Origin: Methanocaldococcus jannaschii DSM 2661
Lineage (GTDB): Archaea; AGJL01; Methanococci; Methanococcales; Methanocaldococcaceae
Length of the DNA stretch: 32,000 nt
Assembly: GCF_000091665.1 (NCBI RefSeq)
Contig: NC_000909.1
Coordinates: 674,048-706,047, forward strand
Reading direction: 5' to 3'
This document shows, one piece after another, positions 6,613 through 24,478 of the stretch (position 1 is its first letter; every line of letters starts with the position of its first letter). A program made the translations under genes and the position numbers. Below the pieces are notes generated by a model, which searched no databases, had not been told where the DNA came from, and was given only the letters and a program-made list of their open reading frames with translations.

Positions 6613-6804
6613 TTATTTTTGTTTAAAAGGAATATAAGCTTTACTGTTATTTTTGTTATTACTTTTTAATAACCATTTAAGTGTTAGTAGGACTATAATG
6701 ATTCCTCCAATTAAAAGAATTATCCAAAATATCATCCAGAAAATCCAAATAAAAGCAAATGGAAATGGTGAAAAGAAAGCATGATGATAACAACATATTG
6801 GCAT
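6613..6804 (-). CDS. Small membrane protein with Cys/His N-terminus (MPICCYHH)
   Basis: The 63-aa ORF has a long hydrophobic stretch (FIWIFWMIFWIILLIGGIIIVLL) and a GGTG about 7 nt upstream of the ATG. It is embedded in a co-directional operon. Confidence 0.45.
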   Translation of the reverse strand: MPICCYHHAFFSPFPFAFIWIFWMIFWIILLIGGIIIVLLTLKWLLKSNNKNNSKAYIPFKQK

Positions 6805-6837
6805 ATGTCACACCATAAATATTTTATTTTTTTGTTA

Positions 6838-7248
6838 TTATTGTTGCCAGCAACAACATCCACAATGGCAATGACATCCATATCCTCCTCTCATCCCATA
6901 TCCGTAATGAGAGGCAGGATGATTCGTAAAGATGAATCCAACCAATTCTCTGTCATAGTATAGAGGATACTTCTCACCAAATGGTGTATTGAATGGCTCT
7001 CCAACCTCTAATTTACTTAAATCAACATCTTTCCATAAAACTCCAACTATTTTCCCATCTATCTCCAAGTGAGAGAGGTTATAACCAAACGGTGTTGTGT
7101 GCTGAACAACCTCTGCAGTTTTTAAAATATCAACTGGATTTATATCTGTATTTTCAGTTGTCTGAGTTTGATATGCCATCCATGGTGGAAAGGCATAAGC
7201 CATGCCTATCAATGCAATTCCCAATATTACCATTAATAGTTTTTTCAT
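6838..7248 (-). CDS. Secreted protein with Gly/Tyr and Cys/His-rich C-terminal tail
   Basis: Signal MKKLLMVILGIALIGMAYA. The tail is HPASHYGYGMRGGYGCHCHCGCCCWQQ. GGTGA box at 7252-7256. Confidence 0.6.
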   Translation of the reverse strand: MKKLLMVILGIALIGMAYAFPPWMAYQTQTTENTDINPVDILKTAEVVQHTTPFGYNLSHLEIDGKIVGVLWKDVDLSKLEVGEPFNTPFGEKYPLYYDRELVGFIFTNHPASHYGYGMRGGYGCHCHCGCCCWQQ

Positions 7249-7372
7249 TTTTTCACCTGAAGGGTAGTTATAGTATATGTATCTTTTTAACTACATATAG
7301 TAGTGTAAGAAAACAAATATATAAATTTTACTAAGTTGTGAAAATTATTGCACAACCATGAAAATAAAAAAT

Positions 7373-8107
7373 TTATTTTTTTAGGGCTTTTTCCACTACC
7401 TCAAATGCAATATAACCAGCCTTATGTAAAATAGTGTCTCCTAACTCTTTATCCATCTCCATACTGGCTAAACATGGATAGTTGTGGTGGGCATTTGCAA
7501 TCTCTTCCTTTAAATCATCTATAGCCTTTCCTTTCAATCTTTTGGCTATATAATAGGTTTCCCCACAGGGAGCAGAGATTTTAACCTTAACATCTTTAAT
7601 AAGGCCATTTTCAACTTCTATCTCCAATTCTGGCTTTCCTATCTTAAAGTAGTCAATAAATTTATTTATATATTCATTACCCTCTTTCTTCTCCAATGAA
7701 CAGAAGGGTTTTGGGTTTTCGAACTCAATATTATAGTTGCTGCAAACTCTCTTTAAATCTCTCCTCAATGCCAAAGACAAATCATGTGGTGTTTCAGAAG
7801 GAACAATTAAAGCTTTATATCCCTTTTCTTTTAACAGTAGAGGAAGTTCATACAACAAATCTTCATGTAGTTGAGCTATACAAATATCCCCCTCTGGGAG
7901 TTCTGGAAGGTAATCGTAAGGGTTATCAACAAACTCCTCATAAACTTCCTCAATAACGATATTTTTCACATTATTCTTAAAAGTCCAGTTTCCTCTGCAA
8001 TTGTAACAATCATCACAAATTCTACAAAAATCTGGTTCATTCAAAAGGTTTTTATAGAATTTCTCCATTCTTTGATTATTTTTGTGGTAAATAAAAACTG
8101 CCCTCAT
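7373..8107 (-). CDS. DUF166-like protein with Cys-rich N-terminal segment (from memory, historically annotated as thymidylate-synthase-like in methanogens; function unproven)
   Basis: Track ORF is 7373..8155. The likely start is MRAVFIYHK (ATG 8105-8107). Contains CRICDDCYNCRG. Family assignment is from memory only. Confidence 0.5.
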   Translation of the reverse strand: MRAVFIYHKNNQRMEKFYKNLLNEPDFCRICDDCYNCRGNWTFKNNVKNIVIEEVYEEFVDNPYDYLPELPEGDICIAQLHEDLLYELPLLLKEKGYKALIVPSETPHDLSLALRRDLKRVCSNYNIEFENPKPFCSLEKKEGNEYINKFIDYFKIGKPELEIEVENGLIKDVKVKISAPCGETYYIAKRLKGKAIDDLKEEIANAHHNYPCLASMEMDKELGDTILHKAGYIAFEVVEKALKK

Positions 8108-8161
8108 AAACTCTCCCCTACAATTTTTATAAAAAGAATTGATGTTTAATACCAAAAATTT

Positions 8162-8605
8162 TTAAACTTTCTTAAATATTAACTTCACTTTTTCTTCAGT
8201 TTCTGGAACTACATCTGATAGCATCAATCTGCAGTTATTACTCACACTATAAATTTCTGAAAGCAAATACATAAATGGACATACATATGGCTTTAAGTTT
8301 TCTTCCATTAATTTTTTGAGGAAGAGGTCTAATGTGGGATTTATAACTTCAAATATTACTTTTTTATCTTCTTCAACAATATTCAAATCCTCAGATAGCC
8401 CAAAAGTATTCACAAATAAATTTTTAATCTCCTCATTACTCATGTTTTCCTTTATAAAACCCAAATCTTTAAGTAGTTTTATCATCTCATAAGATGCTCT
8501 CCTTCCTAAAACCTTTCCTCCATCCCCCATAACATCATATATTGCCTTATTTATGCTGTAATAAAGAGCAGAGACAAATAAACTATCAATTCCTTTTTTG
8601 TTCAT
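8162..8605 (-). CDS. Small soluble protein, possibly a V4R-type ligand-binding domain
   Basis: Track ORF is 8162..8641; the likely start is MNKKGIDSLF (ATG 8603-8605). The V4R assignment rests on overall sequence resemblance and is tentative. Confidence 0.4.
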   Translation of the reverse strand: MNKKGIDSLFVSALYYSINKAIYDVMGDGGKVLGRRASYEMIKLLKDLGFIKENMSNEEIKNLFVNTFGLSEDLNIVEEDKKVIFEVINPTLDLFLKKLMEENLKPYVCPFMYLLSEIYSVSNNCRLMLSDVVPETEEKVKLIFKKV

Positions 8606-11814: not shown

Positions 11815-11837
11815 ATTTTCACCAATTAAAAATAATT

Positions 11838-12203
11838 TTAAAAATAGGGCTTTTTAGTTAGGAAATACAGAAACCTTTCATCATCAGATAACGCATGGAT
11901 AACTGCCTGCCTAACTCCAAAATTAACTCCTAACTTTTTAGCTAAAAATTTCTCCAACTCAATGGTTTCTTTTAGAATCTCTATAACATCTGCGTTTGTA
12001 TCAACCTCTGCCTTTATGTTTGGCTTTTCATTGAAATAGATGAGATACTTCTCATACAAAATCTCCAAGTTCTTCATCTCAACATCAAATAAATCCTTAA
12101 AAATTCTACCCTCATATTCTTCAACGGATTTAAATTTTGCAATCATTGATATTTTTATCTTATTTTCTAATATTTTAGCCAAATATTCTTTTATTTCATC
12201 CAT
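11838..12203 (-). CDS. Hypothetical helical protein
   Basis: The 121-aa ORF has typical codon composition and sits in a co-directional string. No recognisable motif. Confidence 0.5.
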   Translation of the reverse strand: MDEIKEYLAKILENKIKISMIAKFKSVEEYEGRIFKDLFDVEMKNLEILYEKYLIYFNEKPNIKAEVDTNADVIEILKETIELEKFLAKKLGVNFGVRQAVIHALSDDERFLYFLTKKPYF

Positions 12204-12212
12204 AATTTCACC

Positions 12213-12563
12213 CTATTCACATTTAATTGGGTCTTCTGGTGCATTCAATTTCTTTGGATGTGGTGCTTTTACAACAAAAAATTCCAAAATATCAGAATTT
12301 ATGTTTTGGATAAGCATTTTTACATTAAACGGAACATACACAATATTTCCTTCTTTGTAATTATGTGGTTCTTGATCTTCTAATGTTAGTGTCATCTCTC
12401 CTTTAATTATTATTAAATGAACGTAAGAGTTTGAATAATGCTTTGGCATCTGCTCTCCTCTTGGTAAGACAATATGGTTGATCTGGACATGTTCAGTATT
12501 GACAAGTTTTTCAACAACCTTTGTTTTAGCGTCTCTTTTAAACTCATAGACCTTTTCTATCAT
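12213..12563 (-). CDS. Cupin-domain protein
   Basis: LPRGEQMPKHYSNSYVHLIIIKGEMTL...GNIVYVPFNVKMLIQN matches the two-motif cupin pattern. Confidence 0.7.
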   Translation of the reverse strand: MIEKVYEFKRDAKTKVVEKLVNTEHVQINHIVLPRGEQMPKHYSNSYVHLIIIKGEMTLTLEDQEPHNYKEGNIVYVPFNVKMLIQNINSDILEFFVVKAPHPKKLNAPEDPIKCE

Positions 12564-12760
12564 TTAATCACCCATATAAAACACATATTTAAAGAATATT
12601 TTTTATAAATGCAACTGAATTTTAACCTAATTTGCTAATTCAATTAATCAATTTTGCTGATTTACAATCTTATAATTAATTATAATATATAAAATAAAAA
12701 AAATGAAAAAATAAAAGATAAAATTAAAAATTAAAGGTTATTTTGGATTTTATATTATAT

Positions 12761-16429: not shown

Positions 16430-16939
16430 TTAGAATTCTTTAACATGTTTTATAATATCTTCCAAAATCTTCTTCGCCTTCTCCAAATCATAATCAACAG
16501 TTGCCTCCAACTCCAAAAATAGAACTTGCAGACTTGGAGAATACTTACCCTTATTAATCAAATACTCCCTATACTCCCAAACTAATTTTTTAAATCTCTC
16601 AAGTTTTAACTCTTTAATACAATCCTTAGCATAATCCCAAACGGTAGATTTTCCTATGCCTAAAATATTACCAATTTCTCTAACAGAATAGCCCTCAATA
16701 ATTAATTCATGAATCTTTTTAACAGTTTCATCATCAACTTTTCTCTTCCTCCCTCTCTTTGCATTCTCAACCTCTATAAAAATGCCTTTTTTCTTTAAAT
16801 ATTCCAGTTTATAAGCCATTTTTGGATGTTCATAAACAGACTTTGGAAGTTTTAGCAAAACCAAATCTTTTTCTCTCAGTTTTACAATCTTATTAATCTC
16901 ATCCCATCTTGGAATCTTAGATATTTTTATCTCAATCAT
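16430..16939 (-). CDS. HTH DNA-binding protein (resolvase/Hin-type HTH in the middle)
   Basis: KRGRKRKVDDETVKKIHELIIEGYSVREIGNILGIGKSTVWDYAKD. Its start overlaps the stop of the upstream recombinase gene by 8 nt. Confidence 0.55.
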   Translation of the reverse strand: MIEIKISKIPRWDEINKIVKLREKDLVLLKLPKSVYEHPKMAYKLEYLKKKGIFIEVENAKRGRKRKVDDETVKKIHELIIEGYSVREIGNILGIGKSTVWDYAKDCIKELKLERFKKLVWEYREYLINKGKYSPSLQVLFLELEATVDYDLEKAKKILEDIIKHVKEF

Positions 16940-17603
16940 CTAAATCCCCAATATTTTTTAGAATCTCTTTTGCCAGTCTGCTTTGAGTGTAAGTTTCAAT
17001 GTAGTTTATGTTCTTATGCTTGGTTATTTTTGCTAAGACTTGTGCTGGGATGCCATGTTCTCCCAAGTAAGTAACATAGGCATACCTCAGGGAGTGAGTA
17101 TTAATTCCATAATTTTTATAAAGCCAAGCTCCAAATCTCTTAACAATCTTTTTCTTTGCTTTTAACTTTTCATCCATTGTTAGCTTTTCATCAATCTCCT
17201 TTTTAATGTCTAAAAAAACATCCCTAACCATTTCAATATCCTCTTTTTTAATGCATTTTGGTATAATCAGCTCTCTAAACTCCCAATCCTTCCTCTTCTG
17301 AGTCCTAACTTTAACAGTTATCCTCTCATTCCAATTAAGATTGTCTATATTGATGGCTATGTTTATCATCCCAGCTATAGCCTCCCAAATCCTACAACCA
17401 TTCCTTAATTGGAATAAAAAAGTTATAAGATAAGCTATTCTCTTGTAATCATCTTCATAAAGTAATTCCTTGTTTTTCAATTTCTGCAAATCTTCTTTAA
17501 ACATTTTATAGGTTTGTTTGTAATCAATGCCTTTATCCCATGTGCCGCTATGTTTTTTAATACTTTCAGAAGGTTTCGATAGATTCCAATCCCATATCAT
17601 CAT
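16932..17603 (-). CDS. Tyrosine recombinase / integrase (compact, catalytic domain only)
   Basis: Catalytic signature: R in NGCRIWEA, HxLR in THSLRYAY, H/K in ITKHKN, nucleophile Y in YIETYTQ. Confidence 0.75.
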   Translation of the reverse strand: MMIWDWNLSKPSESIKKHSGTWDKGIDYKQTYKMFKEDLQKLKNKELLYEDDYKRIAYLITFLFQLRNGCRIWEAIAGMINIAINIDNLNWNERITVKVRTQKRKDWEFRELIIPKCIKKEDIEMVRDVFLDIKKEIDEKLTMDEKLKAKKKIVKRFGAWLYKNYGINTHSLRYAYVTYLGEHGIPAQVLAKITKHKNINYIETYTQSRLAKEILKNIGDLDD

Positions 17604-17691: not shown

Positions 17692-18384
17692 GTGAATAAA
17701 TTGGTAAAGAAGGTTTATGGTGTTGGTGTAGGTGTTGGAGACAAAAAGCTATTAACATTAAAGGCATTAGAGGTTTTAAAAAAAGTAGATAAAATCTTTG
17801 TCCCAGTATCTAAAAAGGGGAAGAAATCTATTGCCTATGAAATTATAAAGGATTATGTTGATGGGAAGAATATTGAAGAACTTTTATTCCCCATGATTAA
17901 AGATAAAGAGAGGCTAAAAAAATACTGGGAAAATGCTTTAGAGAAGGTTTTAAAAGAAGATGGAGAAGTAGCTATAATAACCATTGGAGACCCTACATTG
18001 TATAGCACATTCTCCTATGTCTGGAAACTTTTAAAAGAAAGAGGGGTTGAGGTAGAGATAGTTAATGGCATTTCATCAATATTTGCCTCTGCAGCTGCTT
18101 TAAATATTCCATTAGTTGAAGGAGATGAAAAACTCTGCATTTTACCTCAAGGAAAGGATTTGGAAAAATATATTGATGAATTCGACACTATAATTATTAT
18201 GAAGACAAAGAATTTAAATGAGAAGCTATCAGTTATAAAAAATAGAGATGATTATATAATTGGGTTGGTAAAGAGGGCAACTTTTGAAGATGAAAAAGTA
18301 GTAATTGGTAAGTTAGACGAAATCAACTTTGATGAATTTAATGACTATCTCTCCTTAGCTATAATAAAGAGGTTTAAGAGATGA
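17692..18384 (+). CDS. cbiL: Cobalt-factor II / precorrin-2 C20-methyltransferase
   Basis: Tetrapyrrole methylase N-terminus VYGVGVGVGDKKLLTLKALEVLKKVDKIFVP, then ITIGDPTLYSTFSY. GTG start per the track. Confidence 0.8.
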   Translation: MNKLVKKVYGVGVGVGDKKLLTLKALEVLKKVDKIFVPVSKKGKKSIAYEIIKDYVDGKNIEELLFPMIKDKERLKKYWENALEKVLKEDGEVAIITIGDPTLYSTFSYVWKLLKERGVEVEIVNGISSIFASAAALNIPLVEGDEKLCILPQGKDLEKYIDEFDTIIIMKTKNLNEKLSVIKNRDDYIIGLVKRATFEDEKVVIGKLDEINFDEFNDYLSLAIIKRFKR

Positions 18385-19442
18385 AAATAATAAAAGCAGT
18401 TCCAGAAGAGTTTTTAAATGGATTGTATTTAATTCCAACTGACAGAGGGAATTTATTGGAATTAGATGAAAACGGAAATTTTGAGGTAGTTAATAATATA
18501 GCCATAATTAGGGTTTTAGCAACACCAAATTTAAAAAAGGCTATAGCCAAGATTGTCTATCAAATTAAAGATAAATACTACTTATTTAAAAATCATAAAA
18601 AAGCAAACTGGCTGAAAAATCTCTTAGAATATATGAACAATAAGATAGAGTTCGATAAATATTATAGAGCCAAAAAGGCATGGTATAGAGGAATAGGGGA
18701 TTTATTTAGAAATATAAGAAAATGGGAATTTGAAAAAGTTGTTGGAAAGATAATCTCACTATTAAAGGTTTTGAATCCAATAGTTGTCTTTGATGTTCAT
18801 GATATAAGAAAATGGCATTATAGGAAGAGTTTTATAAACTTTGTTAAAGAATTAAGGAAAAATAGTATAAGTGTTGTAATAAGATATCCAATTGACTGTC
18901 ATGAAGAGATTAGGGAGATTTTTCCAGAAGGCATTTTAAATACAAAAGCAACCATAAGATACTTTGCAAAGGTTCATGGTTATTATATAAGCGATAGAGT
19001 GGCTGAATATCTCCTAAAAATAACCAATGGAAACTTAGAAACAATATATTTGATATTAAGACACTCAAAAAGAGAGATAAAAAATCTTAGAGAGCTAAAA
19101 ATTCCATGGCTTAGGATTTTACCATATATAGTAGATTCGAAATATCGAAAATTGGTTGAAGTTATAATTGAACTAAGAAAGTTCAAAGTTGAAGATATTA
19201 CTTATAAAGTTAATTACAAATTATCAACCATATACAGATATTTAGATGAGTTGGTTGAGTTAGGAATACTGACAAAAATAAAACATAAAGGCAAAGTAAG
19301 ATTTAAAATAAGATTGAACAGAAATATTTTATTAACTCTCCTCAAAAAATCTAAAAATAACTATTTGCATTGGTTCTCTATTTTCTTGTTAGATAGCATA
19401 CCTTGGGATATACAGATTTTCGAATTTTCGAAAAGTATATAA
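18381..19442 (+). CDS. Winged-helix protein with a possible degenerate AAA+-like core (no intact P-loop)
   Basis: ATGA overlap with the cbiL stop. C-terminal wHTH is YKLSTIYRYLDELVELGILTKIKHKGKVRFKI. It has a Walker-B-like PIVVFDVHD and a lid-like ISDRVAEYLLKITNGNLETIYLILRHS. No GxxxxGK[ST]; YRGIGDLF may be a vestige. Confidence 0.5.
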   Translation: MKIIKAVPEEFLNGLYLIPTDRGNLLELDENGNFEVVNNIAIIRVLATPNLKKAIAKIVYQIKDKYYLFKNHKKANWLKNLLEYMNNKIEFDKYYRAKKAWYRGIGDLFRNIRKWEFEKVVGKIISLLKVLNPIVVFDVHDIRKWHYRKSFINFVKELRKNSISVVIRYPIDCHEEIREIFPEGILNTKATIRYFAKVHGYYISDRVAEYLLKITNGNLETIYLILRHSKREIKNLRELKIPWLRILPYIVDSKYRKLVEVIIELRKFKVEDITYKVNYKLSTIYRYLDELVELGILTKIKHKGKVRFKIRLNRNILLTLLKKSKNNYLHWFSIFLLDSIPWDIQIFEFSKSI

Positions 19443-19584
19443 TAATTAATAGTATTCATACTCAACTTAATGACAGTATTAATATTTATTGATTGTGTAA
19501 AGTTATGACAAAACTTTGTTTTCTTTTTTGGCATATAATTAATATTTTAAGAAACTTAATTTAAATATAAATTTCTTAAAAGGT

Positions 19585-19616
19585 TTTCGAATTTTCGAGT
19601 TACATGTATGTATATG
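19585..19616 (+). repeat. Left arm of the 32-nt inverted repeat
   Basis: TTTCGAATTTTCGAGTTACATGTATGTATATG, read directly from the sequence. Confidence 0.9.
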
Positions 19617-19928
19617 CAGAAAATCTTCGCCTAACTTAAAAAATGGTTGTGAATATCGCAAGCACAACTATTATACTATTGTACTTTTTTTCACAATATA
19701 AGTTAAAATAGTAAAAATTTTTTATTTTATATTTTAATATTAATTATTGTAAAATATTTCCAATAAATATTGTTAAAAAATGTTATTTTAAAAAAATAAA
19801 AATAAAAAAACCATAATTAGCTCTAAAACTCTAACGTTATACGTTTATAATACAAAATAGTGTATAATATCCTTTACTCTAATTTTGCGATAATTCGTTT
19901 TTCAGAAAAAGTTGTCCATTCTGTTGGT

Positions 19929-19960
19929 CATATACATACATGCAACTCGAAAATTCGAAA
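19929..19960 (-). repeat. Right arm of the 32-nt inverted repeat (31/32 identical to the left arm)
   Basis: The reverse complement of 19929-19960 is TTTCGAATTTTCGAGTTGCATGTATGTATATG. It lies 4 nt from the stop codon of the 175-aa gene. Confidence 0.9.
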
Positions 19961-19964
19961 TTCG

Positions 19965-20492
19965 TTAATCTTGATTTTTCAATGTTTTATAGAGCCGTTT
20001 CAAATAATCAATGTGTTTGCATGTATCACTCTGACAGATAACACACCACCAATAGCCTTTATTGCTTCTAAAAACATCACCTAAATGCTCTCCATTGGAA
20101 TCAAAGAATGAAAATACTATTCCTCCAAGTTTATCCTCTTTCCAGCTGATTTCAAACCCTATTTTATCCACTGGGTAATACTTAGTGGCAATTTTCTTTT
20201 TAGGTAATTGTTCGAAAACACTCGAAAAACTCAAATCGAATATTTCTGGAGCCAATCTTTTTAATATCGCCAATCCTTTTGATGTAAATGAATATAAAAC
20301 TTTATGTCCCGCTCTTTCTCTCTTCATTATATTTAGAGCCGAACATAGCCTCAAAAAAGAGCTTGCAAGACCTTTCGATATATTTAAATTTTCTGCGAGT
20401 GATTGTGGATAGGTTGTGCCACGTATTAACACATAATGTAAAATCGCCTTTCTAAATATAGTTGATACTATTTCATAAGGCAATCTTTCCAT
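19965..20492 (-). CDS. Winged-helix DNA-binding protein with C-terminal SWIM-like zinc finger
   Basis: wHTH: TYPQSLAENLNISKGLASSFLRLCSALNIMKRERAGHKVLYSFTSKGL. C-terminus: WWCVICQSDTCKHIDYLKRL (CxxC...CxH). GGGTG box upstream of the ATG at 20490-20492. Confidence 0.6.
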   Translation of the reverse strand: MERLPYEIVSTIFRKAILHYVLIRGTTYPQSLAENLNISKGLASSFLRLCSALNIMKRERAGHKVLYSFTSKGLAILKRLAPEIFDLSFSSVFEQLPKKKIATKYYPVDKIGFEISWKEDKLGGIVFSFFDSNGEHLGDVFRSNKGYWWCVICQSDTCKHIDYLKRLYKTLKNQD

Positions 20493-20581
20493 ATTTACAC
20501 CCAGTATTCCTAATAACTATTATTGTTGTGATTTTGTTTTGTTGATACTCAATTATATTTGACATACTCGTTTATAAAACT

Positions 20582-21049
20582 TTTGATTCATGGGATTGTT
20601 TTAACCCCTATGTGTTGGGTGTAGTAATACTAACATTTTAAGAACGTCTCTTTGAGTATGTTTCTATATTGTACCAATATTTATCTCTTTCTATTATTTT
20701 GTTGTTATATGCTATTTTTTACTAATAATTCTTAGATTTAATATACTGTTAATTTACATATAATCTTTGATTCATAGTTTTTTATTGGTTATATTATTTG
20801 ATTCACGATATCTTATTTTTAATATTTTGAAGCAATTCCTATGAGAAGAATTAAAATTAACTTTATTTCATTAGAATAATATATATATTATATTTAATTT
20901 CATTCAAGTTTATTTCTGAAAATAATAATCACTTATTCTATATGAAATATTGTTTGATTCATTAGATTTTTTAATTTTATTGTTTGATTCATGAGATTTT
21001 TAATAAACTTTATAATAAAACATTTAAATTTAAGAATAATTGATTCAAT
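20582..21049 (+). repeat. Array of six co-oriented TTTGATTCA(T) boxes in the divergent intergenic region
   Basis: Boxes at 20582-20591, 20766-20775, 20797-20806 (..CAC), 20953-20962, 20983-20992 and 21040-21049 (ATTGATTCAAT variant). The boxes at 20948-20971 and 20978-21001 sit in 24-nt repeats with one mismatch, 30 bp apart. A degenerate copy TTTATTTCATTAG lies at 20862-20874. Confidence 0.8.
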
Positions 21050-21179
21050 CTATCTTTCGATTTTTCGAAATCTATATAACGTTCTTAAGACAAAAGTTCG
21101 AAATCAATGGAAAATATTGTAGATAATTAGTAGATAATTAATTTAAATAAATTAATTTATATTTTATTGCGGTGGAAAC

Positions 21180-22409
21180 ATGGACCCAATAGAGTTTATA
21201 CAAAAATCTGCAAGCTCTATAGCAAGCACCATGCATAAATTAAAATTAAAATACAATCCATTTTCTGAAAAGCCAATAAGGGGAAATACAAAGTTTTTTG
21301 TAGGTAGAGTTAGCGAGTTAAGGGAAATTGGAGAAATTTTAGGTTCTGCATTGCATGGTAGTGTTGCTAACGCTGCAATAGTTGGAACTAAGGGGATAGG
21401 GAAGAGTTCAATGCTAAACATCATATACTATGCAACAAAAAAGCAGGGACATTGGGTTGTTGAGATGACTGCCTCTCAGGTAACACCAAGGCAGTTTTTG
21501 ATACAGCTCTTATACAATATATTAACTGAAAACATCATAACCATGAGTGGAACGATAAAATCTGATTACATGGAACATTCAAGTAGAATTTTAGATATGT
21601 ATAGGAAGTTAAACAACTATGGGGATAAAGTTCCTATCCACTATCCAAGGGAGAGGATTGAGAGGGATTTGGAATATCTAATAAATGAAGTTAAAAGTCC
21701 TGATAAGTTATGTATAATTTTAATTGATGAAGCTGACCAATTTGCAAAAAAGAGCTGTTTAAGTTTATTACAATTTTTCCACTCGTTTTTGTATGAAGAG
21801 GGAATTTTAACGTTTATGGCTGGTTCTCCAACATTGATGGATGATTTAACAAAGATATCTCCACCAATAAAGGATAGAATTCCAAAAATAATAAATATGC
21901 CTCCTTTATCAAAAGATGAGTCCTATGATTTAATTAGAAGAAGATTGGAAGATGCTCATATTGATGGAGCAGAGGAGTTTGAGCCGTTTACTGAAGAGGC
22001 TATTCATAAAATTGTTGAAGAGTGTGACGGAATTCCAAGAAAGATAATAATGACATGCTCTGAATCAATATCAATAGCTATAAGAAAGGGTTTAACTAAA
22101 ATAGATGAGAAGGTTGTTAAAGAGGCTATGCATTCTCTTGGCATTAGTGTAGGACATCAAATTCTAAACCACTTAACTCCTGCCCAATCAGAGATTGTTA
22201 GGGCAATGGCTGAGCTTGGAGGTTCAGCAACGGTAACACAATTAGCTGAATATTTAAAAAAATCACCAAGTACTATTGGAACTCATCTCTCTGACATCTA
22301 TGAGATGGGATATATTTATAAAGAAAGGGAAGGAAACAACGTATATTATAAACTATCTAAAGAACTTAGGGATGTCTTAATAGGTGAAGATGATGAATTG
22401 GAGATGTGA
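21180..22409 (+). CDS. Divergent Orc1/Cdc6-like AAA+ ATPase with C-terminal winged helix
   Basis: Walker A GTKGIGKSS, Walker B LCIILIDEAD, lid-like FTEEAIHKIVEECDGIPRKIIMTCSESISIA. C-terminal wHTH ATVTQLAEYLKKSPSTIGTHLSDIYEMGYIYKEREGNNVYYKLS. GGTGG box at 21171-21175. Confidence 0.7.
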   Translation: MDPIEFIQKSASSIASTMHKLKLKYNPFSEKPIRGNTKFFVGRVSELREIGEILGSALHGSVANAAIVGTKGIGKSSMLNIIYYATKKQGHWVVEMTASQVTPRQFLIQLLYNILTENIITMSGTIKSDYMEHSSRILDMYRKLNNYGDKVPIHYPRERIERDLEYLINEVKSPDKLCIILIDEADQFAKKSCLSLLQFFHSFLYEEGILTFMAGSPTLMDDLTKISPPIKDRIPKIINMPPLSKDESYDLIRRRLEDAHIDGAEEFEPFTEEAIHKIVEECDGIPRKIIMTCSESISIAIRKGLTKIDEKVVKEAMHSLGISVGHQILNHLTPAQSEIVRAMAELGGSATVTQLAEYLKKSPSTIGTHLSDIYEMGYIYKEREGNNVYYKLSKELRDVLIGEDDELEM

Positions 22410-23380: not shown

Positions 23381-24478
23381 TTGAAAGCTTTGGTTTTAGG
23401 TATCAACACAAGGCCTGTAGTTAATTCTCTTAAAAAATTAGGATTTTATGTATATTCAGTCTCTTACTACGCCCCAGAAGATTTAAATGCTGATGAGAAA
23501 TATTATTTGATAAATCCTTTAGTTCATGGAAGATTAAAAGAAAACTATGATGAAAACAAATTAATTGAAATAGCTAATAAATTAGCTGATGAAGTTGATT
23601 GTATCTTTATAACTTCAGGTGTTTTTGAATTCGAAAATTCGAAAATTCCAGGATGGGATAATGTTATAGGTAATGGGCCAAAAAAGATAAATGAAATCAG
23701 TAACAAATATAAAACATATAAGAAATTAAAAAATCTTGGTTTTAATATACCAGAAACTAAGAAAATAAACAATAAGACTCAATTATATAAATTTTTGGAA
23801 GAATTTAAAACCTGCATTTTAAAGCCTATCTACGGGAGTGGAGGAAGTATTTTAAAGATAGAATTAAATAACTTTGATGATGAGATAATTAATGAAATTA
23901 AGTTCCCAATTATTGCTCAGGAATATATTAGAGGGAAAAGTTTTAGTGCCAACTTTATAGGCAATACATTTATAACCTTTAACAAACAAATTATAATTAA
24001 GGGAATGTATGCTGGGAATTTAACTCCATATATTAATTTACCAAATAAGTTTGTTGAAATATTTGGTGAGGTTATAGAATCTTTTGAATTAAAAGGAATG
24101 AGTGGCATTGATTTTTTGATTAAAGATAATGGTCCTTATATTGTTGATATAAATCCTCGCATTTTAGGAACTTATGAGACCATAGAGATGAGTGCATCTC
24201 AAAATTTGGCAATGGTTTTGCTAAATAATAAGTATGCCAAGGAGATTAAACCAAGAAAAGTATATATAAAAAGAATATTGTTTGCTAAAGAGAAAATTAT
24301 CGCTAATATATCAAAAAGGGACTTTATACATGATATTCCAAAGAAAAATGCAGTTATAGAGAAAGGAGAGCCTATAGCTACAGTAATTGCAAAAGAAAAC
24401 ATTAAATCAATAATAAACAGTGTTTATGAGGAGTGTGCAGAGTATGAGAAAAGAAAAGAAGATAGAGAGAATATATGA
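23381..24478 (+). CDS. ATP-grasp domain protein of unknown substrate
   Basis: The track ORF starts at 23327. I favour TTG at 23381 (AGGTGG at 23371-23376), giving MKALVLGINTRP. ATP-grasp blocks: ILKPIYGSGGS, IAQEYIRG, MSGIDFLIKDNGPYIVDINPR. Confidence 0.7.
   Translation: MKALVLGINTRPVVNSLKKLGFYVYSVSYYAPEDLNADEKYYLINPLVHGRLKENYDENKLIEIANKLADEVDCIFITSGVFEFENSKIPGWDNVIGNGPKKINEISNKYKTYKKLKNLGFNIPETKKINNKTQLYKFLEEFKTCILKPIYGSGGSILKIELNNFDDEIINEIKFPIIAQEYIRGKSFSANFIGNTFITFNKQIIIKGMYAGNLTPYINLPNKFVEIFGEVIESFELKGMSGIDFLIKDNGPYIVDINPRILGTYETIEMSASQNLAMVLLNNKYAKEIKPRKVYIKRILFAKEKIIANISKRDFIHDIPKKNAVIEKGEPIATVIAKENIKSIINSVYEECAEYEKRKEDRENI

Follow-up and report, generated by a model that had tools for sequence, protein, structure and literature searches.

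A conserved candidate replication-origin island beside MJ0774 in the Methanococcales, with two order-specific winged-helix genes

We analyzed a 32-kb stretch of the Methanocaldococcus jannaschii DSM 2661 chromosome (the window) in which three genes for winged helix-turn-helix (wHTH) proteins bracket two AT-rich non-coding regions. An initial annotation made from sequence alone had described five parts here, a 353-residue protein, an inverted-repeat gap, a 175-residue protein, a repeat array and a 409-residue protein, and open reading frame (ORF) calls and repeat searches recovered all five where it had placed them. By exact sequence look-up the three ORFs are MJ0772, MJ0773 and MJ0774. We consider it somewhat probable (roughly 55%) that the region is a conserved replication-origin island of the order Methanococcales, with MJ0772 and MJ0773 as accessory factors. 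The locus combines an easily melted AT-rich segment, inverted repeats and conservation with a position beside replication genes, and its features lie far beyond chance because both proteins and both repeat sets are conserved across the order. Replication initiation in Methanococcales and Methanopyrus has been called an "intriguing" unknown of archaeal replication in a review. No canonical Orc1/Cdc6 is recognizable in Methanococcales, and MJ0772 and MJ0773 offer concrete candidates for the initiation route.

The order MJ0772 (+), gap 1, MJ0773 (-), gap 2, MJ0774 (+), followed by the genes for MptA, an ATP-grasp protein and TFE, is common to all genera sampled except for a split in M. indicus. 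The sample comprised five Methanocaldococcus genomes or metagenome-assembled genomes (MAGs), two Methanothermococcus, Methanotorris igneus, M. aeolicus and M. maripaludis, and the order of the trio is also kept in eight metagenome contigs. The initial annotation had named a lack of synteny in relatives as one finding that would refute its proposal, and the trio and its repeats are indeed kept together across the genera. The two non-coding regions flanking MJ0773 are likewise conserved in length, at 495-625 bp for gap 1 and 610-854 bp for gap 2 across the order, with a GC content of 13-25% (AT 75-87%); in M. maripaludis (L011) they lie at 6733-7352 and 7875-8484.

Gap 1 lies between convergent 3' ends, and promoters therefore do not account for it. 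It holds an inverted repeat with 32-nt arms (boxes 2 and 3; Table 1) that are 97% complementary and have 312 nt between them. The outer arms follow a consensus of ~30 nt, TTTCGnnTTTTCGA, five variable bases and ATGTATGTATA, with the second arm as its reverse complement, and within each species the two arms are 75-100% complementary to each other. Inside them an inverted pair, ATTATCACAA / TTGTGATAAT, is conserved across the order, with ~200 nt between its copies that diverge freely. Outside the arms and the inner pair the sequence of gap 1 has diverged, the 250-320 nt between the arms being rich in indels and conserved in length. The core of gap 1 came out at -94.5 kcal/mol per 100 bp in a nearest-neighbour profile in which the window averages -117.9. 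The arm pattern had 8 matches in 241 million metagenome records, every one at this locus, and none in the 2.9 million viral contigs of IMG/VR.

Gap 2 carries six plus-strand copies of TTGATTCA within 465 bp (20583-21047); in the whole window, counting both strands together, there are 8 copies against 3.6 expected. Five same-strand TTwGATTCAy boxes and their spacing are conserved across the order. They include two pairs, with 30-31 nt between the boxes of a pair and 156 nt from pair to pair, and the copy at 21040 is found only in M. jannaschii among the nine species aligned. The two pairs are separated by a palindrome, and there the duplex is the second least stable of the locus (100-bp windows with starts at 20841-20881). 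Box 4 is promoter-like for MJ0774, with a B recognition element (BRE) and TATA-like sequence; across the order, ~40-125 nt ahead of the start codon, a TTTCGnnTTTTCGA box is followed at once by a TATA-like element. Arms, inner pair, ATTCA boxes, palindrome and box 4 are the invariant columns of otherwise diverged intergenic DNA.

Table 1. Features of the candidate origin island, in window positions.
Feature	Position	Strand	Description
MJ0772	18381-19442	+	353 aa; ORF call
Box 1	19418-19442	+	TTTCGAATTTTCGA then AAAG-TATATAA; repeat families and box alignment
Box 2, left arm of inverted repeat	19585-19616	+	TTTCGAATTTTCGAGTTACATGTATGTATATG; conserved in all genera
Inner inverted element, left copy	19651-19661	+	GAATATCGCAA; ATTATCACAA in most relatives; alignment
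AT-rich core of gap 1	19661-19830	.	least stable duplex of the 32-kb window; candidate unwinding element
Inner inverted element, right copy	19886-19897	-	TTGCGATAATTC; inverted pair and alignment
Box 3, right arm of inverted repeat	19929-19960	-	ends 4 nt before the MJ0773 stop codon
MJ0773	19965-20492	-	175 aa; ORF call
TTwGATTCAy box array	20582-21047	+	TTGATTCA starts at 20583, 20767, 20798, 20954, 20984 and 21040
Central palindrome of gap 2	20854-20915	.	AAAACTTTAT...ATAT...AAGTTTATTT, between the two box pairs
Box 4	21055-21079	+	TTTCGATTTTTCGA then AATC-TATATAA; ~100 nt upstream of the MJ0774 start codon
MJ0774 (Mc-pRIP)	21180-22409	+	409 aa; ORF call

The arm motif also occurs singly, at the end of MJ0772 (box 1) and in the MJ0774 promoter (box 4). 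Box 1, which covers the final codons of MJ0772, stop included, is 88% identical to box 4 over 25 nt, and its DNA motif is kept across two reading frames, encoding FEFS in Methanocaldococcus and FRVFG elsewhere. From species to species the four TTTCGnnTTTTCGA boxes of a genome vary largely in concert, as sites read by one protein would. At the variable central dinucleotide, M. jannaschii has AA in three boxes and AT in box 4, M. aeolicus has GG and M. igneus is mixed.

The arms could instead act as RNA or as a cruciform, with gap 1 encoding a non-coding RNA or being transcribed from box 1. Box 1 does have a good TATA-like element pointing into gap 1, and the complementarity of the arms within each species is what a paired structure would keep. 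We nevertheless regard this explanation as very improbable: the gaps gave no Rfam match and contain no tRNA, the sequence between the arms is poorly conserved, and arms so far apart are untypical of an RNA helix. The single boxes at the end of MJ0772 and in the MJ0774 promoter are a better fit to a protein-binding site.

Further copies of related sequences came to light. An exact palindromic box, TTCGAAAATTCGA / TTCGAATTTTCGA, lies at 23630-23643 inside the ATP-grasp gene, and a box occurs at the equivalent position in four other Methanocaldococcus loci (L001 12456, L002 2698, L003 12651 and L004 10940); it may be a functional site or may reflect coding conservation. A one-mismatch copy of this type of box is present inside MJ0772 at 19136. 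Between box 4 and the MJ0774 start, at 21119-21140, there is a perfect tandem duplication, GTAGATAATTA GTAGATAATTA, seen only in M. jannaschii among the nine aligned species.

Outside Methanocaldococcus, the MJ0772 homolog is immediately preceded on its own strand by an MCM helicase gene, from which 4-109 nt separate it; only at one locus (L010) is the gap longer, at 1.4 kb. This arrangement was found in M. maripaludis, M. aeolicus, Methanotorris, Methanothermococcus and MAGs, and the presence of MCM directly upstream in four genera strengthens the link of the trio to replication. Given their shared strand, adjacency and short gaps, MJ0772 is likely co-transcribed with MCM. The linkage is found in each of the two families of the order, which makes MCM, MJ0772, gap 1, MJ0773, gap 2, MJ0774 the most likely ancestral arrangement of the island. 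In M. maripaludis S2, MCM (CAF29586.1) and the MJ0772 homolog (CAF29587.1) have consecutive accessions. A review identifies MMP0030 as the only essential MCM of this species, and the MCM beside the MJ0772 homolog is presumably MMP0030.

A natural rearrangement in M. indicus separates the components of the island. Its MJ0774 homolog lies ~445 kb away, 24 nt behind an energy-converting-hydrogenase-type gene, with neither an AT-rich gap nor boxes. The MJ0772/MJ0773 pair retains a perfect 33-nt inverted repeat, the ATTCA boxes and the palindrome; only box 4 has decayed. The repeats stay with MJ0772 and MJ0773, and therefore are not merely the regulatory region of MJ0774. In this species (L016, 12688-13649) the block is followed directly by the genes for GINS23, L44e and S27e, which Berthon et al. 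(2008) described as a replication-translation gene cluster. The rearrangement has thus put a second replication gene, GINS23, beside the repeats.

Could MJ0772 and MJ0773 simply be ordinary wHTH transcription regulators that happen to lie near an origin, with the gap 2 repeats as their operators and the gene order reflecting low rearrangement there? Database names ("transcriptional regulator", "MarR family") say as much, and the sole significant sequence signals in either protein are generic wHTH matches of the ArsR, MarR, Lrs14, Sta1 and Csa3 types. Gap 2 is a divergent promoter region, boxes 1 and 4 are BRE/TATA-like, and the two proteins evolve far faster than MJ0774 (33-93% and 42-90% identity, against 68-97%). 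Several observations sit poorly with this explanation, however. Gap 1, between convergent 3' ends, needs no operator yet has the best-conserved elements and the least stable DNA; the repeat array persists in M. indicus without the MJ0774 gene; and in four genera MJ0772 follows immediately after MCM on the same strand. MJ0772 also has a ~245-residue part outside the wHTH, with Walker-like motifs. We judge the regulator explanation unlikely, though with a real chance of being right, and prefer the origin-island reading.

MJ0774 is a putative initiator with a Cdc6-like arrangement of AAA+ ATPase, lid and C-terminal ArsR-type wHTH (HTH_5, E 1.3e-12), an order taken from profile coordinates. The initial annotation had proposed the 409-residue protein as an initiator of Orc1/Cdc6 architecture; Walker A and B, lid and wHTH are all there, but the candidate is already published, as MJ0774 or Mc-pRIP, and is not new. 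The proposal that MJ0774 is a remote homolog of Cdc6 and an initiator beside a predicted oriC goes back to Zhang & Zhang (2004). The name Mc-pRIP comes from DoriC (DoriC 5.0), where the family served to predict origins throughout the Methanococcales; a 2017 review writes of orc genes that are highly divergent, and a 2026 preprint (Ori-Finder-Arch) reports a lid domain and, with AlphaFold 3, a fold similar to that of CDC6 (LDDT 0.546). Walker A (GTKGIGKSS), Walker B (DEAD) and a sensor-2-like DGIPR are all invariant in 16 sequences from across the order, whose identity is given above. Matches to Pfam AAA_16, ATPase_2 and AAA exceed their cut-offs. In the Pfam profile scan no match to Cdc6_C was listed, the wHTH matching HTH_5/ArsR instead, and the closest solved AAA+ relative is Drosophila Cdc6, at only E 3.9e-4. 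Judged by sequence, the matches of MJ0774 to Orc1/Cdc6 are weak and consistent.

The AlphaFold2 model of MJ0772 is confident, with a mean local confidence (pLDDT) of 83 and a predicted TM-score of 0.77. It runs from N-terminal strands through a strand-loop-helix (residues 40-62), three long helices (79-131), a strand (134-139), a helix, a further strand (164-170), another helix and a lid-like three-helix bundle (188-227) to a winged helix (~243-312) and a low-confidence tail (326-353). The initial annotation had reported no P-loop. The motif is not simply absent: residues 47-54, between strand and helix, read ATPNLKKA in M. jannaschii and ATP[NS]LKKT in most relatives, and a 14-member alignment reaching down to 37% identity gives [AG]TP[NS]hKK[T]. 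This deviant Walker A fits [AG]xxxxGK[ST] except at the second glycine, which is K or S; A/G47 is kept, K53 is invariant, and T54, kept in most relatives, is Ala in M. jannaschii. The intact pattern is nonetheless missing, as first reported, and by its Walker A MJ0772 does not qualify as an AAA+/ASCE P-loop NTPase.

Other motifs of MJ0772 bore out the first description in part. The Walker-B-like VVFDVHD lies in a strand (134-138, IVVFD) that ends in D or E at position 138 in 14/14 sequences; it is followed by V, H/R/N and D/N, so that H140 and D141 vary and there is no conserved second acidic residue. The C-terminal wHTH was confirmed, and for the lid-like segment we obtained only sub-threshold Hda_lid matches, at the expected place in 9/15 family members. 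A basic helix in the helical insertion, RAKKAWYRxIGD (96-107), is nearly invariant among the 14 members. Foldseek found no PDB match below E 0.001. The multi-domain matches were weak (E 0.011-0.12, TM 0.13-0.29) and almost all to ORC/RFC subunits, Apaf-1, A. pernix ORC1, MuB, RdrA and clamp-loader delta, and Fic proteins also appeared, through their winged helix. We conclude that MJ0772 probably has an AAA+-derived architecture that is catalytically impaired. MJ0772 belongs to an orphan family: of 1.84 billion proteins searched exhaustively with its profile, 8 representatives matched, 7 of them strongly (E <= 1e-14) and 1 weakly, in the wHTH region alone.

Two metagenomic homologs of MJ0772 are unusual. 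On a JGI metagenome contig (L018, 2161-3126, P0016), the N-terminal ~190 residues of a homolog run on in frame into the catalytic C-terminal part of a tyrosine integrase; the fused gene is directly downstream of MCM and is followed by an AlpA/HTH_17 excisionase-like gene. An integrative element seems to have inserted itself into this homolog. In the MAG "Dive100_bin4.136" (L006, 7319-8353), a homolog has an in-frame TAG at codon 227 with good similarity beyond it, which may mean a pseudogene, a sequencing error or read-through.

The ancestry of the block raises a further alternative, a domesticated plasmid or virus replicon that replaced the ancestral Orc1/Cdc6 origin, with MJ0772 as a Rep-like protein and the repeats as iterons. 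Same-orientation direct repeats before an initiator gene resemble iterons, and published work has suggested both non-orthologous replacement and extensive movement of mobile replication genes in the order. The top match of MJ0772 in a viral structure library, and the only one there below E 0.001, is a "plasmid replication protein" of a Halobacterium phage (E 9.4e-5, TMq 0.36), and its wHTH weakly matches phage "replication initiation protein" PHROGs in 7/14 members. Integrases are also close by, in the element inside one metagenomic homolog and in a remnant 0.8 kb upstream in M. jannaschii. The PHROG and NCBIfam matches are, however, limited to the generic wHTH, and we discounted them as evidence for a Rep protein on that ground. 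The 2.9 million viral contigs hold no relatives of MJ0772 or of the arm motif, which led us to reject a recent mobile-element origin of the locus. The locus also occupies one fixed chromosomal place in all genera, and therefore any replicon capture predates the order. We regard the replicon ancestry as improbable; it is in any case compatible with the origin-island reading for present function.

MJ0773 joins a weak ArsR/MarR/AspA-like wHTH (~10-85) to a β-rich C-terminal half that ends in an invariant WWCxxCxxxxCxH and then a helix. The initial annotation had described a wHTH followed by a SWIM-like zinc finger. The wHTH, albeit weak, and an invariant C150-x2-C153-x4-C158-x-H160 cluster are present, but the SWIM assignment did not survive: none of the 16 family members (0/16) matched the Pfam SWIM profile, even at E values up to 10, and for this reason we call the module Cys3His. 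Its spacing is CxxC, against the CxC of the SWIM signature CxCxnCxH. The protein diverges fast, to 33% identity in M. maripaludis.

How these parts might work together can be set out as a model. One protein, most simply MJ0774, would recognize all four TTTCGnnTTTTCGA boxes; it would open the AT-rich core of gap 1 and regulate its own gene through promoter box 4. MJ0772 and MJ0773 would be order-specific, origin-bound accessory factors. As an AAA+-derived and probably ATPase-impaired protein, MJ0772 may connect the origin, MJ0774 and the helicase as a partner or adaptor, and its adjacency to MCM points to helicase recruitment. The divergent promoter and the repeat array point to MJ0773 as the array binder: with its winged helix and Cys3His module it would bind the direct repeats and its own divergent promoter, and MJ0773 and/or MJ0772 may occupy the TTATATTCAC boxes. 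A more elaborate version, which we advance as a speculation unlikely to hold in full, has a two-part origin flanking MJ0773 and a complex of active MJ0774, ATPase-impaired MJ0772, co-expressed with the essential MCM and aiding its loading, and array-bound MJ0773. If true, active and inactive subunits would share the work in the manner of ORC, in an arrangement that evolved independently of eukaryotes.

A number of points weigh against the origin-island reading or its parts. According to reviews, no origin has been mapped experimentally in any Methanococcales species, and for this reason the origin assignment rests on prediction; among methanogens, one review notes, an origin has been demonstrated experimentally only in M. 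thermautotrophicus. Which protein binds which repeat is purely our inference. M. maripaludis lacks box 1, and the resemblance of boxes 1 and 4 to ordinary archaeal BRE/TATA promoters means that part of the box family could be promoter architecture. MJ0774 falls far below curated cut-offs, with 41.5 bits against 181.3 for TIGR02928 (E 7.5e-11) and 23.3 bits against 501 for NF001625, and Raymann et al., in a phylogenomic study, consider that it may be a non-orthologous replacement. Confidence in the MJ0773 model is low (pLDDT 66), and only moderate for its C-terminal module. For MJ0772, phmmer and profile searches of the PDB found no solved AAA+ protein, and hhalign of the MJ0772 and MJ0774 families aligned only the generic wHTH (probability 2.8%), with 0.3% for the N-terminal parts alone.

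The last result bears on the proposal in the initial annotation that the 353-residue protein is a degenerate Orc/Cdc6 paralog. The confident model and its ORC/RFC-type fold matches (E 0.01-0.1) lend this weak support, but a paralog should have detectable sequence homology to MJ0774, and MJ0772 has none. The label "degenerate Orc paralog" is thus plausible but unproven, and we think a paralogous relation to MJ0774 unlikely. We also rejected a special kinship among the three winged helices, for which hhalign gave probabilities of 14.8%, 2.8% and 0.4%.

The initial annotation had taken the arrangement to be undescribed. This holds for MJ0772 and MJ0773, neither of which we found mentioned in the searchable literature, but not for its surroundings: the initiator was known, and Berthon et al. 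(2008) had noted a Cdc6-like gene near MCM and DP2 in M. maripaludis. What we did not find described is the two-protein/two-gap architecture, the MCM linkage as a unit, the M. indicus split and the Walker-like remnants of MJ0772. Our analysis adds an order-wide map of cis elements, two conserved proteins that stay with the origin DNA when MJ0774 moves, the ancestral gene order and the natural rearrangement in M. indicus. The resulting predictions are directly testable in the genetically tractable M. maripaludis.

The surroundings of the trio in M. jannaschii comprise genes for an F420 ligase, a short HTH protein, a truncated tyrosine recombinase and a corrin methylase upstream, and for GTP cyclohydrolase MptA, the ATP-grasp protein, TFE and an HD protein downstream. 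Between the F420-ligase and corrin-methylase genes, at 16430-17603, are two minus-strand ORFs, presumably MJ0769 and MJ0770, which encode a 169-residue protein with a resolvase-type HTH_7 and a 223-residue truncated tyrosine recombinase (Phage_integrase, E 2.2e-7). The flanking genes directly adjoin in Methanocaldococcus sp. 16A (L001), for which reason the stretch, 0.8 kb from the origin block, resembles the strain-specific remnant of a mobile element; sp. 28A (L003) has a 1.6-kb gap at this place. We rejected a relation between MJ0770 and the integrase of the metagenomic fusion described above, as comparison found the two unrelated.

Downstream, the GTG start of the MptA (GCHY-1) ORF overlaps the final 26 nt of MJ0774 (22384-22409), suggesting that the initiator candidate is transcribed together with a gene of pterin biosynthesis; tblastn matches suggest a comparable overlap in other Methanocaldococcus loci. 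Elsewhere in the window, ~950 bp at 11815-12760, upstream of a prismane/hybrid-cluster protein gene, have no ORF of at least 150 residues and no Rfam family match. The 100-bp windows starting at 12621-12681 within it reach -94.6 kcal/mol and are unstable like the origin core. GC skew tracks gene orientation within the window, and we rejected it as an origin locator at this scale.

Among known systems, the closest is Mc-pRIP with its predicted oriC (Zhang & Zhang 2004; DoriC 5.0; Ori-Finder-Arch 2026), which is the same gene at the same locus, with oriC beside MJ0774. The accessible papers on it do not include MJ0772, MJ0773, the inverted-repeat gap, the box architecture, the MCM-MJ0772 unit or the M. 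indicus split. MJ0772 recalls the ATPase-impaired AAA+ subunits that work beside active ones, such as eukaryotic ORC subunits with degenerate sites and clamp-loader delta, in the α/β, lid-like and winged-helix order of its model, a deviant Walker A and a single Walker-B-like acidic residue. Its fold matches include ORC chains, RFC subunits and E. coli delta, at the level of architecture only (E 0.01-0.1, TM ~0.2). Iteron plasmid origins share with gap 2 the short same-orientation repeats, spaced by ~30 nt, upstream of an initiator gene; unlike them, the present locus is chromosomal and order-wide, has no plasmid or viral relatives and keeps its repeats after the initiator gene moves.

The locus also recalls Sulfolobus oriC3 and WhiP, a lineage-specific, Cdt1-like winged-helix initiator, in that a non-Orc winged-helix protein is encoded beside the origin and proposed to act there. 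WhiP has two winged helices and no α/β domain, whereas MJ0772 has one and an AAA+-like N-terminal part and MJ0773 has one and a zinc cluster; the exhaustive profile search of 1.84 billion proteins found no sequence relation between WhiP and MJ0772. In canonical archaeal origins, such as that of Pyrococcus and oriC1 and oriC2 of Sulfolobus, the orc1/cdc6 gene is adjacent and inverted ORB elements flank an AT-rich unwinding element. The Methanococcales locus departs from this plan in its motifs, TTTCGnnTTTTCGA...ATGTATGTATA and TTwGATTCAy, which differ by eye from the ORB/mini-ORB consensus. It differs, too, in its second repeat region with same-strand boxes, in the two lineage-specific DNA-binding genes embedded in it and in an initiator below the curated Orc1/Cdc6 thresholds. 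As in the canonical origins, however, inverted box pairs flank the least stable AT-rich DNA, the gene of the putative initiator lies nearby with a box in its promoter, and the neighbours are replication genes, MCM and, in M. indicus, GINS23.

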